Under the pieces are notes generated by a model, which had not been told where the DNA came from, searched no databases, and saw nothing but the letters and a program-made list of their open reading frames with translations. From IMG/VR virus record IMGVR_UViG_2551306674_000009: 11,334 nt of DNA; one strand, written 5' to 3'. Of the stretch, positions 1 through 9,460 are shown one piece after another (the stretch's first letter is position 1; every line of letters begins with the position of its first letter). The DNA comes from a virus (Duplodnaviria; Heunggongvirae; Uroviricota; Caudoviricetes). A program made the position numbers and the translations under genes.

Positions 1-200
1 TGTCAGTTATCATCTTCGGTTACGGTTATCGGCAGAACGCCCTGCCGCTGACAAGAGCTTATTTGCCTGACCAATCTACTTCACATGATAGATAACTATC
101 ATTTATAACATTTCATTGATTAGCCTTTATTTTTCATTGCGTTACAAATAACAGCCCTGTCAAAAACAGCGAAATTAACTACACCATTAACTACACCGTT

Positions 201-240
201 TCACGAACAATATCGAACAACCACGAACAAAGATCAACAC
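201..240 (+). repeat. Four tandem 10-bp units (tcacgaacaa / tatcgaacaa / ccacgaacaa / agatcaacac), consensus NNACGAACAA
   Basis: Read directly; 10-bp helical phasing; same motif recurs at 9431-9460 and, inverted, at 513-526. Confidence 0.6.
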
Positions 241-662: not shown

Positions 663-1080
663 GTAATCGTTATGGTTGCCTTGATGATCTGCGTGGTGAT
701 TATCATCACCCAAAATCTGGGTGTTACTCTTACTACCCAAACTACGGGTAGTTTCCGTAGTTTCATAGTCGAGTTGCAGATCTGCAACTCCCCCATCAAC
801 CACAGGCGAATTTCCGCCTTCGGTCATTCCTTAATCATCTGCGTAATCATAATGATTATTCAGCCAGCGCAATTTTGCGCTTTGCTTTAAGTTCAACCAG
901 TTACCGCCAGCTTCCCCCAATGGGGGATTGTGGAATAATCAACGGTTTAGGCCTTAATCATCTGCGTAAACATAAGTAATCATAATGATCATTCAGCCAG
1001 CTCAATTTTGAGCTTTGCTTTAAGTTCAGCGAGTTGCCGCCAGCTTCCTCAAATTGAGGTTTCCGAAAATATCAGCGGGT
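663..1080. repeat. Tandem structured repeat units (~125 bp: 829-952 and 953-1080, plus a diverged copy 663-828), each with three hairpin/palindrome modules
   Basis: Units B and C align end to end; paired substitutions keep the stems intact (agcgcaattttgcgct vs agctcaattttgagct; cccccaatggggg vs cctcaaattgagg). Unit A has its own hairpins (aaactacgg-N7-ccgtagttt; gagttgcagatctgcaactc). Confidence 0.6.
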
Positions 1081-1214
1081 TAGCGATTAAGCTGACCATT
1101 AATTAAACTGCGAAAATTTCGTAGTTTGTGACTGTCTTTCAGGCAGCTTGTTAACAGTCCTCAGAAGCGAGGGATGTAGCCACCCATTTTGGGGCCGTCG
1201 GGAATATCAACCAG

Positions 1215-1496
1215 TTACCGCCGCAACCGCTCCGGCTTCTTCCAGTGGTACGTTATTTTCTCCTTCTCCCGATACATCTCCACGCGGCGACGGTAGGCCA
1301 GCAACTCAAGAACTCTGGTTCGTATGTTGCGCATATCCACGCCATTAAGTTCTATACCATCACGGCGCATCACCTCAGCAACAACACGCGCATAGTTTTC
1401 GGCTGTCACGCTGTCCGGCTGCGTGGCCTGTTCGTCAGCCTGCTGGCTGATTCCGGCGACGCGGCGGATTAATCCCAGTAGTTCGGCTTCTGTCAT
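1215..1496 (-). CDS. Hypothetical protein (93 aa)
   Basis: ORF with GGGGG Shine-Dalgarno 4 nt before the ATG; begins immediately outside the cosQ side of the cos site at 1531. No recognisable family. Confidence 0.45.
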   Translation of the reverse strand: MTEAELLGLIRRVAGISQQADEQATQPDSVTAENYARVVAEVMRRDGIELNGVDMRNIRTRVLELLAYRRRVEMYREKEKITYHWKKPERLRR

Positions 1497-4741: not shown

Positions 4742-4763
4742 AAAAAAGCCGGATTGCTCCGGC
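4742..4763 (-). terminator. Rho-independent terminator after the 74-aa gene
   Basis: Minus strand: gccggagcaatccggc followed by TTTTTT; same sequence family as the terminators at 2471-2494 and 5105-5128. Confidence 0.7.
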
Positions 4764-4783
4764 TATGTGTGCTGTGTGCTGGC

Positions 4784-5104: not shown

Positions 5105-5128
5105 AATAAAAGCCGGATTTCTCCGGCT
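5105..5128 (-). terminator. Rho-independent terminator ending the replication/regulatory operon
   Basis: Minus strand: agccggagaaatccggct followed by TTTTATT, directly after the PerC-like gene stop. Confidence 0.65.
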
Positions 5129-5134
5129 GTTTGA

Positions 5135-5407
5135 TTAGCTGTCCTGGTAATTGCGCCATATTTCATCACCAGCACCATCTATACCCATTTCGGCATAAGT
5201 GCGATCGACTGCCTTTTTCAGGTCTCCGAAATTATCCGGCGGCTCCGGTGCCCTCTGTGCCTTCCTTGAACATTCCAGCCGTCGCATCGTGATGTGATGC
5301 CGTTCCTTGTCTGTCTCCACCAGCTGCATGACTTCACCCCATCGCGCCGCCGCCCTCCGGTAAAAGCCTTTCGCCTCCAGTTCCTCCGCTATGCGGTCAT
5401 GTACCAT
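5135..5407 (-). CDS. PerC-family transcriptional regulator-like protein
   Basis: Motif AEELEAKGFYRRAAARWGEVM resembles the PerC/Pch signature as I recall it; start placed at the internal ATG (MVHDRI) with a GAGGGGG SD rather than the longer ORF-track start at 5527. Confidence 0.55.
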   Translation of the reverse strand: MVHDRIAEELEAKGFYRRAAARWGEVMQLVETDKERHHITMRRLECSRKAQRAPEPPDNFGDLKKAVDRTYAEMGIDGAGDEIWRNYQDS

Positions 5408-5417
5408 CGTCACCCCC

Positions 5418-5713
5418 TCAGAACGAAATATCATCACCGTAAGGGTCATCGCCTCCCGCTGGTGGCTGATTACCCTGTGTGCCTGTGGTTTTGCGTCTGT
5501 TCCCGCCAGGACGGGCAGCACGGGCACTGATTACACTGTCTGCGATAACCTGCCAGCCCTGCCGCGTTTCGCCGTTCTGGCCTGTCCGTCCTGTGCCTGG
5601 CTGCATGGCAAAGATACCGCCATACGCGCCAGCGTCATCGGTGTGCCCTTGCTGGTCTGTTTTACCTGCGGGTCGTCCACCAGCCGCCCGTAAGCGGCTA
5701 TCTGTGCTGTCAT
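5418..5713 (-). pseudogene. SSB-like remnant spanning two reading frames
   Basis: Frame from 5713: MTAQIAAYGRLVDDPQVKQTSKGTPMTLARMAVSL (SSB N-terminus-like); a second frame ending at 5418 is Gly/Gln-rich and ends DDPYGDDISF (SSB acidic tail-like). Start overlaps the upstream stop (ATGA) and the second frame ends 10 nt before the next gene. About 98 codons in total, too short for a full OB fold. Confidence 0.35.
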
Positions 5714-5961
5714 GATTCCACCTCTCCGGTTTTAACGTTGATGGTTGTTACCTGTTCCGCTTCGGCAATCTCCCGTTCTGTCAGCGTGGCAAAGTTTGCC
5801 GCCGCCGTGGTCATGAATGCGCTTATCAGGTCGGGATGTTCCTTCGCGTATCCTTCCCGCGTGTGGCGGTCTATCGTTCTGATTGCCACCTTTAAGGTGT
5901 GCTCAGTCATGTCTAACGCTTTATATTTTGGCTCTGTTCTGTCTCTGCGTTTTTGGGTCAT
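5710..5961 (-). CDS. Hypothetical protein (~83 aa)
   Basis: First ATG with GAGAGG SD at 5961 (ORF-track start at 5991 is GTG and lies inside the iterons); stop overlaps the SSB-like start. Confidence 0.45.
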   Translation of the reverse strand: MTQKRRDRTEPKYKALDMTEHTLKVAIRTIDRHTREGYAKEHPDLISAFMTTAAANFATLTEREIAEAEQVTTINVKTGEVES

Positions 5962-5969
5962 TTCTCGCA

Positions 5970-6165
5970 ACCTCTCACTTTTTCGCCTCACTTTTTCAAG
6001 CGTCTCACTTCGTCGCAGTTGGGATTTTCGGTTTTTCTATGTGTGTGTTTCATAAGTATTTTTTTACCCCTCACTTTTGAGGATGTATACAGGTCGAAAA
6101 GTGAGGGAGAGCGGGCTAATTTTGGCCCTCTTTCTATCCCCCTCGCTTTTGCTCCTCACTTTTAT
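5970..6165. repeat. Putative replication origin: CTCACTTTT iterons flanking an AT-rich stretch
   Basis: Copies at 5974-5982, 5987-5995, 6004-6010 (degenerate), 6070-6078, 6097-6105 (inverted), 6142-6150 (degenerate), 6155-6163; AT-rich 6020-6068; immediately 3' of the rep gene. Confidence 0.65.
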
Positions 6166-7562
6166 AGCGGCGCTACATCATCCCCATCGATACGAATAAC
6201 CCCATCTTTTTCCAGCTTGTACAGCCAGCGCCGGAAGTTTTTCATTTCATACCCCAGCTTTTTCATGTCATCACGTAACAGCGGGATCGTGCACTTGTCG
6301 CCGTTCTGTGTGCGTGAACGGATGCACCCCCATAGCGCGGTATGGTTTTCCGTCTTGTTCCCTGCCTCCTCGATGCGCTCCAGTTCAACAGGAGGGCGCG
6401 GATCATCCACCACCACCAGCGACGTGATTAATTCACCGTCAGCGTCGGTAAAAAGCTCCACCACGCGTAAGTCATATGCGGCTTCTTTGAGTTCCTCCGC
6501 GTCCTTCATTTTGGTGCATGAGATAACCAGCGCTTCGCTTCCTGCGTCCTCCCTGCGTATCCGGTATTCAGCATCCAGCGAAGCACGAAATGCACTGGAA
6601 CCGCGCGCGCCTTTCGTCTCATCCTTGCCGGAATGGTGAACCACCAGCACCGTGGCCCCTGTGCGTCGTTTCAGTTCGTCACAACCACGGATAAACGCCC
6701 CCATATCACGGGAATCATTTTCATCATTCCCACCAAAGCAACGCGCCAGCGTATCCAGAATAATCATGCGTACAGGTTTACCCGTTTCCCGCTCCACCTG
6801 ACGGGCAGCGATAACCATTTCATCAACATCAAGCGGGGCAGCCGGAAAGATGGGGCGGTTTACCAGATACAGATTTTTCACCTGCTCATCGTGCACAACC
6901 TCCCAGGCTTTTACACGACGCGGAACACCTATACCGCCTTCACCAACCACATAGAGAACCGCACCATGTGCAACCCTGCGGCCTCCCCACTGGCGACCAG
7001 TGGCAACATGGCACGCCCACGATCCGGCAAGGAATGATTTATAGGACCCGCTAGCCCCGTATATGCTGCATAGCGATACCGCCGGAATAATCCCCTTAAC
7101 CACGTAATCCAGTTGCGTGTCGTATCCGGTAGATCCAACGCTCATCGGTAGCGTGGTTTTTCGCTGGTGGTTTTTTTCTTCCGCCGGCTCTTTCCCGCGC
7201 ACCCGTTCCAGGTATTCGCGCCAGTTCTCCCGCATATGGCTGTGCATCCCTTCGGGGTAATAATTCGCATCAGTTACACCCGCCGCCGCCAGCTTGTGCG
7301 CAATGGCATTAATATTTGATGGCCTGATGTGGCCTGCCTTGTACAGCCGGACACAATAGCGCCCCTCGTCGATGATTCTCAGGTCTGCCAGTTCATCCAG
7401 TTGATCATCAGCCAGCACAACGGGAGGCACATTATCGCCAGCCAGTCGCCCGTCCTGTTCCTGCCACTGTTTCGCATGTGCCCAGGCATCACTACCCGCA
7501 AAAATAATGACTTCGGTCATCTTGTCGTAAGGCTGTTTTTTTAAGTTCGGTGCGCTTTTCAT
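6162..7562 (-). CDS. Replication initiator/helicase, RepA-like (AAA_25-type RecA-fold ATPase)
   Basis: 466 aa; Walker A GASGSYKS, Walker B-like MIILDTLARCF, VLVVHHSGKD; C-terminal winged-helix-like region; ATGA overlap with the upstream ORF. Confidence 0.8.
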   Translation of the reverse strand: MKSAPNLKKQPYDKMTEVIIFAGSDAWAHAKQWQEQDGRLAGDNVPPVVLADDQLDELADLRIIDEGRYCVRLYKAGHIRPSNINAIAHKLAAAGVTDANYYPEGMHSHMRENWREYLERVRGKEPAEEKNHQRKTTLPMSVGSTGYDTQLDYVVKGIIPAVSLCSIYGASGSYKSFLAGSWACHVATGRQWGGRRVAHGAVLYVVGEGGIGVPRRVKAWEVVHDEQVKNLYLVNRPIFPAAPLDVDEMVIAARQVERETGKPVRMIILDTLARCFGGNDENDSRDMGAFIRGCDELKRRTGATVLVVHHSGKDETKGARGSSAFRASLDAEYRIRREDAGSEALVISCTKMKDAEELKEAAYDLRVVELFTDADGELITSLVVVDDPRPPVELERIEEAGNKTENHTALWGCIRSRTQNGDKCTIPLLRDDMKKLGYEMKNFRRWLYKLEKDGVIRIDGDDVAPL

Positions 7563-7858
7563 TTCTTGCCCCTGAATCCGTTAATCATGGTTTTCAGCTT
7601 CTGGATGTTTGCCCGTGCCCTGGCGTTGCTGGTGGGCACGTTATGCGGCGCGGTCTGTACCAGAGAAAAATCACGCCGGAACTGATAAACAGGCATCACG
7701 CAATCATATTCGTAACCTTCACGGCGGTAAGTTACGCACCGTCCCGCCACGCCCTTAATCATTACCGTGCCGCCGTACTGGTCGCGGTAAATATCACCGC
7801 GCGTAAATTTAGGGTTAGTGTTGCCACTGGCAGTTAAGCCAGAATATTTAAGTTTCAT
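7559..7858 (-). CDS. Hypothetical protein (99 aa)
   Basis: ORF with GGAGA SD, translationally coupled to rep. Confidence 0.5.
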   Translation of the reverse strand: MKLKYSGLTASGNTNPKFTRGDIYRDQYGGTVMIKGVAGRCVTYRREGYEYDCVMPVYQFRRDFSLVQTAPHNVPTSNARARANIQKLKTMINGFRGKK

Positions 7859-8555: not shown

Positions 8556-8745
8556 AGGTTTCCCCCTGGCGAATACGGGCGGCGAATACAGCAACACAAC
8601 CTGACGGGCAACGGTTACGCGCTTCGCGTTCCGTCCAGGCGGTTACGTGGATGATTTGAGATTCTCCGGCACTCAGTGCCAGAAAACGCCACACAAAGGC
8701 CGTTTGTGTGTGTACAAGGTGTGGGGTATGATTTACGGCAACCAT
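8545..8745 (-). CDS. Hypothetical protein (66 aa), first gene of the replication operon
   Basis: ATG with GAGGAG SD at optimal spacing; preceded by a structured leader and the divergent promoter region. Confidence 0.55.
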   Translation of the reverse strand: MVAVNHTPHLVHTQTAFVWRFLALSAGESQIIHVTAWTEREARNRCPSGCVAVFAARIRQGETYAQ

Positions 8746-8819
8746 AACGGCTCCTCGTTTACGTTGTTGGTTAGAAGCCCGTTGGTGTTCATAGCGCCAG
8801 CGGGCTTTGCTTTTGTGGT

Positions 8820-8880
8820 GTCATTGGTATACATTGTCACCGTAAGGCCATTATTATACTCGAGGTATACAATGTCAACC
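8820..8880. promoter_or_regulatory. Divergent promoter/operator region between the RHH gene and the replication operon
   Basis: Two direct copies of GGTATACAWTGTCA(A)CC (8826-8840, 8864-8879), each overlapping a -35-like hexamer; plus strand TTGTCA-N15-TATACT, minus strand TTGACA-N14-TATAAT. Confidence 0.5.
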
Positions 8881-9048
8881 AATGACAACAAAAAGGAAAG
8901 GTTTTCCGTACAGCTTCGTCTTGATGCTGACTTATTCGAACGCTTAAGCATCGCCATGAAAGAAGATGGCGATGATAACCGCTCAGGATGGATAAAAAGG
9001 CTTTTGCGCCGTGAGTTGGATAAACGCGGCATAGAATCAAAAGAATAA
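8872..9048 (+). CDS. Ribbon-helix-helix (Arc/MetJ/CopG-like) DNA-binding protein, candidate repressor
   Basis: 58 aa: KERFSVQLRLDADLFERLSIAMKEDGDDNRSGWIKRLLRREL fits the beta-alphaA-alphaB RHH pattern; GAGGT SD; divergent from the replication operon. Confidence 0.7.
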   Translation: MSTNDNKKERFSVQLRLDADLFERLSIAMKEDGDDNRSGWIKRLLRRELDKRGIESKE

Positions 9049-9105
9049 TTACTATCAGCGCCGTGGCGTGAGGTACTACGGCGCATTGCTTTACAGGGCA
9101 GTATC

Positions 9106-9333
9106 ATGACCAACAACACACTATTACCAATACAAGACACGCAAACCCAAGATGATGAAATCATCCGGCAAAGGCAGTCAGAAGCCTGCGCCAGAGTTGA
9201 GGAAGAACTAACCAGAACAAAAATACCACCACCAGCGCCGCGCTTAATGCCACCAGAAAAATTTGCCCTTGAAGATTTTGTCGAGAAATACCCACGGCGG
9301 TTAAAAGCCACTAAAAACCGACCGCCTGGCTGA
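9106..9333 (+). CDS. Hypothetical protein (75 aa), possible second gene after the RHH gene
   Basis: ORF only; weak SD; no recognisable family. Confidence 0.25.
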   Translation: MTNNTLLPIQDTQTQDDEIIRQRQSEACARVEEELTRTKIPPPAPRLMPPEKFALEDFVEKYPRRLKATKNRPPG

Positions 9334-9430
9334 TAGCCTTGTCCACCAGCTACGGCGGTGCTAAGATTGAAAGCTGCATAAGTCATGAAAATAAACTCCT
9401 TAGCGGTGCATACGCGCCGCTTCTTTTCTT

Positions 9431-9460
9431 CACGAACAACCGCGAACAAGTACAAACAAA
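9431..9460 (+). repeat. Three tandem 10-bp units (tcacgaacaa / ccgcgaacaa / gtacaaacaa)
   Basis: Same NNACGAACAA motif and 10-bp phasing as 201-240; lies just 3' of alpA. Confidence 0.55.

Follow-up and report, generated by a model that had tools for sequence, protein, structure and literature searches.

The window analysed here is a stretch of 11,334 nucleotides (IMG/VR record IMGVR_UViG_2551306674_000009). It matches, at 100% identity, positions 380-11713 of a locus (L002) on contig AOUQ01000046.1, which belongs to assembly GCA_000403965.1. The host is E. coli, since 5,058 complete records of this species match the flanking clpS/clpA sequence with 99% identity or more. [quoted passage not shown] The features in and around this remnant are as follows (window coordinates).

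5713..5531, minus strand: ORF A, the 5' remnant of ssb, 60 aa, made up of native codons 1-45 (5713-5579), 15 missense codons and a TAA stop
5606..5418, minus strand: ORF B, the stranded 3' part of ssb, 62 aa, in the -1 frame (from translation)
5580..5587, minus strand: deletion scar, the single kept copy of the 8-bp direct repeat GGACAGGC, where intact alleles have 115 bp more
5710..5961, minus strand: upstream gene of 83 aa (phrog_1231), annotated as hypothetical in relatives, with its stop overlapping the ssb ATG
6162..7858, minus strand: replication module upstream of ssb (Pfam, PHROGs and the RefSeq annotation of relatives)
7562-6162, minus strand: gene for a RepA-like AAA_25 helicase of 466 aa, in the replication module
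7858-7559, minus strand: gene for a DUF4222 protein, in the replication module
5135..5407, minus strand: gene for a perC-family regulator (Pfam PerC, 146 bits)
5111..5128, minus strand: terminator-like hairpin and T-run 3' of perC, one of three repeated copies (family D3)

The native part of ORF A (MTAQIAAYGRLVDDPQVKQTSKGTPMTLARMAVSLPCSQAQDGQ; full translation MTAQIAAYGRLVDDPQVKQTSKGTPMTLARMAVSLPCSQAQDGQARTAKRGRAGRLSQTV) is followed by 15 residues read out of frame, and the ORF shares 76 nt with ORF B, whose frame is -1 relative to it. ORF B (MQPGTGRTGQNGETRQGWQVIADSVISARAARPGGNRRKTTGTQGNQPPAGGDDPYGDDISF) passes through seven missense codons after its ATG into native codons 82-136, which encode the last OB strand, a Gly/Gln/Pro-rich linker and the acidic tip DDPYGDDISF (C-terminus ...GNQPPAGGDDPYGDDISF, also given as …GGDDPYGDDISF), and ends on a TGA. 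An SSB-like N-terminus and a Gly/Gln-rich DDPYGDDISF segment in different frames, as an earlier note had read them from the letters alone, are both present. Searched against Pfam SSB (PF00436), ORF A scores 17.2 bits, below the cut-off of 26, over profile positions 4-40 of 104, and ORF B has zero matches in Pfam, so that neither ORF yields an OB-fold domain above the curated cut-off. Among the PHROGs, ORF A matches the SSB family phrog_44 (E=6.5e-12) and ORF B matches phrog_28350 (E=2.9e-31) and phrog_44 (E=1.6e-06). No single frame runs from OB fold to tip: ORF A stops at 5531 and the tail lies in the -1 frame. The linker and a D-D-I-P-F-type tip are encoded in the window, but in another frame than the N-terminus and with the penultimate Pro replaced by Ser.

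The boundaries of the remnant are those of a gene within an operon. An ATGA at 5713-5710 overlaps the TGA of the upstream gene with the ssb ATG, which is the placement for coupling that had been described. Downstream, the tail-frame TGA at 5420-5418 is followed by GGGGGTGACG and then by the perC ATG at 5407. The earlier note had put this stop 10 nt before the next Shine-Dalgarno sequence, whereas the 10 nt in fact separate it from the perC start codon and the SD-like GGGGGTGA lies inside them. In intact islands perC likewise starts 10 nt after the ssb stop, while in the window it starts 123 nt after the premature stop of ORF A. Terminator-like hairpin copies with the sequence AGCCGGAG(A/C)AATCCGGCTTTT occur on the minus strand at 5108-5133, 4744-4769 and 2475-2500, positioned after perC, after a 74-aa gene and after a 137-aa gene, and resemble reused transcription-unit ends. 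The hairpin after perC probably ends a transcription unit that comprises the replication genes, ssb and perC.

The remnant sits in an island whose gene order is int, alpA, several small genes, the DUF4222 gene, the RepA-like helicase gene, the 83-aa gene, the ssb remnant and perC, then the terminator-like hairpin, small genes, a lambda-E-like capsid gene and a D-like decoration protein gene, and finally the 137-aa gene, a Nu1-like small terminase gene and a 93-aa gene. Its Pfam matches are Phage_integrase, Phage_AlpA, AAA_25, Phage_cap_E, HDPD and Phage_Nu1, and no tail or lysis families were found in the island with Pfam. By this gene content, the island is a PICI-type phage satellite of E. 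coli. It resembles the E. coli PICI and cf-PICI satellites (Fillol-Salom et al. 2018; Alqurainy et al. bioRxiv 10.1101/2022.09.08.507074; de Sousa et al. 2023, PMC10085698) in having int, an AlpA regulator, a replication module, perC, a capsid-like gene and terS within about 11 kb and in carrying no tail or lysis genes. However, unlike cf-PICIs such as EcCIEDL933, it does not have their defining portal, terL and head-tail adaptor genes. The terms SSB and single-strand are absent from the satellite papers checked.

The island is inserted between cspD/yljB and clpS, where Rfam and tRNA scans revealed no RNA element and no tRNA attachment site. An imperfect direct repeat of 73 nt (73% identity) lies at both island ends (L002 291-363 and 11475-11547) and includes an identical block of 18 nt, GGTGTAGTTAATGGTGTAG plus TTAATTT; judged from sequence, these end repeats are the probable attL/attR region. 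GGTGTAGTTAATGGTGTAGTTAATTT is contained in the repeat at both ends; one copy lies at window 167-239, and its partner at L002 291-363 falls just outside the window, beyond int. We also observed a cluster of direct repeats at window 679-1222, in the stretch from the last island ORF to the end of the island, composed of a 115-nt unit present twice (82% identity; 1090-976 and 957-843), a 24-nt unit present three times and a 16-nt unit present three times. Lying downstream of the Nu1-like terS, these repeats could be a cos/pac or origin region. A further region that differs between islands is an Icd-like one downstream of alpA (window 8733-9455, minus strand), which is an annotated pseudogene in the islands of O157 and of strain Z1323CEC0015 (L001 2108-2701; L004 1938-2530). 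The Z1323CEC0015 island has a frameshifted terS as well (L004 9455-9998). Given these Icd-like pseudogenes and the frameshifted terS, gene decay appears to be scattered over the resident copies of this island family.

Our megablast search with window positions 5300-5800 against 5,426 complete E. coli genomes returned matches in 1,645 of them. The best matches cover the 501-base query fully at 98% identity, in two pieces over 616 bases, and the gene beneath them is annotated 'single-stranded DNA-binding protein'. This island family has an intact ssb of 136 aa in hundreds of complete E. coli genomes, for instance that of O157:H7 strain PV15-279 (411 nt, 136 aa, WP_000126695.1). This intact relative matches PF00436 with 58.2 bits over profile positions 4-101 of 104, phrog_44 with E=4.5e-39, solved SSB structures in the PDB with E-values down to 2.4e-10 and E. 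coli SSB at 26% identity (E=4e-09); on these homology matches, the intact island protein is a bona fide SSB. It is built of an OB fold, a Gly/Gln/Pro-rich linker and an acidic C-terminal tip with the consensus DDPYGDDIPF. Compared with the chromosomal SSB of E. coli (PF00436; 1EYG, 1KAW, 1EQQ), it has the same OB-fold core, aromatic residues aligned with W54, F60 and W88, a Gly/Gln/Pro-rich linker and an acidic I-P/S-F tip, but it is shorter (136 versus 178 aa) and its linker is much shorter.

The intact gene is common and conserved. The exact O157 protein belongs to a cluster of 1,200 members and is found on at least 1,000 contigs, and a homology search retrieved 554 clusters, mostly of 136-149 aa, from E. 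coli, E. albertii and Shigella. The C-terminal tips of the retrieved proteins of at least 125 aa read DDPYGDDIPF in 64 cases, DDPYGDNIPF in 26, DDPYGDDISF in five and DDPYGDGIPF in two. Pairwise dN/dS among three intact ssb alleles is 0.09-0.31; by this measure the intact ssb is kept by purifying selection and the window allele represents a rare loss. In the deposited phage genomes we found no phage SSB with more than 35% identity to the island SSB, which rules out a known sequenced phage as its origin. The family includes a variant tip: the window allele shares the ending …DDISF with the abundant O157 allele, the family consensus being …DDIPF. In the E. coli mutant SSB-113 (P176S), the penultimate Pro is likewise changed to Ser and binding to chi is impaired (PMC3045619). 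The DDISF tip of the window allele, as opposed to the DDDIPF of E. coli SSB, corresponds to this SSB-113-like state, suggesting that a naturally weakened SSB tip is common in O157-type islands.

Alignment with intact island ssb genes, which the earlier note had proposed as a check, upheld the SSB relationship and placed the lesion exactly. Both halves of the remnant have about 98% DNA identity to the annotated intact ssb (E=1e-134), and against the WP_000126695.1-type gene the 5' part has one mismatch in 134 and the 3' part six in 162. The surroundings agree too, with the 83-aa gene upstream, perC downstream and the same island architecture. Unlike these genes, the window allele is missing 115 bp, is frameshifted and cannot encode the OB fold. 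In pairwise and multiple DNA alignments, the window is without exactly 115 consecutive bp in the middle of the gene and is otherwise colinear, so that intact genes align on both flanks and the suggestion of a decayed ssb holds. The earlier note had the two segments joined only by a frameshift. The two frames are real, but what joins them is this internal deletion and not an indel of 1-2 nt. The frame is shifted because 115 = 3x38+1.

The deleted stretch equals one copy of GGACAGGC plus the sequence between the two copies, and the junction now reads GGACGGACAGGCCAGAACGG. In the intact allele of strain Z1323CEC0015 (L004), GGACAGGC occurs twice, at nt 127 and, 115 nt further on, at nt 242. When we simulated the loss of one repeat copy and the spacer from this allele, the length and junction of the window were reproduced exactly, and the 11 allelic differences between the simulated product and the window all lay away from the junction. 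Repeats of 8 bp are not rare in the intact gene, whose 411 nt hold five pairs. We found no intact allele that equals the window flanks, the best reaching 98% over the 501-base query and 99.1% over the junction query, and we infer the parental allele with both repeat copies from the related allele in L004. Loss of one direct-repeat copy together with the spacer is the typical pattern of replication slippage or microhomology-mediated deletion. Given this repeat geometry, one of these processes acting between the GGACAGGC copies would have removed the 115 bp, and a slippage-type mechanism is plausible.

The deletion takes out residues 46-81 of the intact protein, TLWLSVIAFGKQAGFLAKHQKGDVASVSGTMQVSQW (codons 46-81 plus one base), which bears out the claim that the total is too short for a complete OB fold. 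The lost residues include W48, F54 and W81, which the alignment pairs with E. coli SSB W54, F60 and W88 (mature numbering), so the equivalents of these three OB-core aromatics all fall inside the 115 bp. In E. coli SSB, we take W54, F60 and W88 to be the residues that stack on ssDNA (1EYG structure). Translation from the native start would yield a 60-aa fragment of 45 native and 15 missense residues, and the linker and tip would stay untranslated in another frame. From their predicted products, neither ORF A nor ORF B can form an OB fold, and the 45-residue native fragment of ORF A would not be expected to fold.

The deletion allele is rare. Its exact 60-aa ORF A product is encoded on three contigs. 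The junction is absent from the 5,426 complete E. coli genomes, where every top match falls in two pieces spanning 216 bases, and the exact junction has no match among GTDB species representatives. Strain SCU-106 carries, at this cspD-clpS site, an island whose ssb is intact. The junction recurs unchanged in a Logan assembly made independently from run SRR36641694 (L003), in an island with the same integrase and insertion site as the window. There, a D5_N/DUF5906 primase of 584 aa (L003 3683-5437) replaces the AAA_25 RepA-like helicase of 466 aa found at window 6162-7562. The integrase, attachment site and packaging genes are common to both islands, which shows that replication modules are swapped between islands. 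The two remnants differ at six positions, all in the 3' part, and have an identical 5' half with private synonymous variants in common. Given these shared features, a single ancestral deletion followed by mosaic recombination would be the simplest history of the 115-bp allele, recurrent slippage being a possible alternative. The tail changes of the SRR36641694 remnant relative to the window (N>S, K>T, D>G, S>P) are also seen in intact alleles (GDGIPF, DDIPF), and we therefore rejected them as a sign of decay or relaxed selection. We also identified a second, independent ssb lesion, a 1-nt deletion (the C of CAGGCGACG) at codon 45, within the position of the left repeat. It leaves a 77-aa product and occurs on 12 contigs, in islands of this family at the phoQ site (L005 6001-6234; also L006-L008).

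Could the deletion be an assembly or sequencing artefact over a gene that is really intact? The source is a draft short-read assembly (a 22-kb contig), and none of the 5,426 complete genomes has the deletion. However, the identical junction in the SRR36641694 island disfavours an artefact, as the six nearby differences and the other replicase mark that island as another strain from other data, and an 8-bp repeat should be far too short to collapse a short-read assembly. We find an artefact hardly credible. Even less credible, to the point of being next to impossible, is a programmed -1 ribosomal frameshift that fuses ORF A and ORF B into one SSB-like protein of 98 aa, a reading the earlier note had offered. 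The -1 frame of ORF B and the 76-nt overlap would suit it, but ORF A has no X XXY YYZ slippery heptamer anywhere, the overlap included. The homologues are single ORFs of 136-149 aa, continuous across 115 more bases, so the two-frame layout reflects a recent lesion and no conserved design; it is not conserved, the split form being on three contigs only. The fused product would also lack 36-37 residues of the OB core (46-81), including the three ssDNA-stacking aromatics. We accordingly rejected the programmed frameshift.

Another suggestion was a tail-only SSB mimic, with ORF B translated alone from the ATG at 5606 and its product competing for host proteins that bind the SSB tip. ORF B keeps the whole linker and tip, and a weak SD-like GGCGG lies about 8 nt upstream of this ATG with a predicted dG of -6.1 kcal/mol, which is among the strongest 16% or so of ATGs on the strand and similar to the values for the RepA and 83-aa genes. 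Further, PHROGs has a 71-aa family labelled 'unknown function', phrog_28350, whose match to the island SSB (E=8.8e-39) falls on the C-terminal half. However, the ATG and its surroundings are identical in the aligned intact alleles, so the start is a chance feature, an out-of-frame ATG whose frame in the intact sequence presumably terminates after about 26 codons (read by eye). Neither assembly has a gene call for ORF B, a collection of 15 billion proteins lacks the exact ORF B sequence, and the allele that could encode it is very rare. The simplest account of the family phrog_28350 is gene calling on genes split in a similar way; it was probably built from split or truncated ssb genes, and its label can probably be resolved in this way. 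In addition, the window tip is ISF and not the consensus IPF, the same Pro-to-Ser change as in SSB-113, which is impaired in partner binding (PMC3045619). With nothing positive gained for it, we regard the mimic as very improbable. Alternatively, the loss of ssb could be adaptive, for instance by relieving the cost of a second SSB or by avoiding a host defence that senses foreign SSB. Two independent inactivating lesions in the same gene, the 115-bp and the 1-nt deletion, would fit such selection, and the presence of the 115-bp allele in two islands with different replication modules is compatible with its spread by recombination. However, few contigs carry the lesions (3 and 12, compared with 1,000 or more for one intact allele alone), the intact alleles are under purifying selection, and the two carriers of the 115-bp allele have integrase, attachment site and 5' half in common, for which common descent suffices. 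Adaptive loss thus seems unlikely to us. We would give very little credence to the wider proposal that ORF B, translated from its chance ATG, is a free and disordered linker-tip peptide titrating SSB-docking host proteins or that the loss was selected to evade foreign-SSB sensing. If this were true, the allele would be functional and not debris, and a tail-only peptide that is made and active would be a natural SSB-tip decoy.

We are therefore confident that the locus is a rare deletion pseudogene of an island-borne ssb, as far as sequence can tell, and the 115-bp deletion is probably recent and of slippage type. The proper annotation is an ssb pseudogene with an internal 115-bp deletion and not two small hypothetical genes. 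Beyond annotation its importance is slight; the underlying island ssb is already known and annotated. In the deletion carrier, translation no longer covers the 123 nt ahead of perC, and lost coupling or polarity may lower the expression of that gene.

More relevant to the biology of the family, these satellites carry their own short SSB, which is conserved and under purifying selection. The position of ssb directly behind the replication genes and its translational coupling on both sides make a role of the intact SSB in island replication after induction most likely. It would coat single-stranded DNA and recruit host replication proteins while the island replicates upon induction by a helper phage. 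In the deletion carrier, the host's own SSB presumably supports island replication instead. The two independent lesions indicate that the island can persist without an intact ssb, which suggests that the host SSB substitutes at least for island maintenance.
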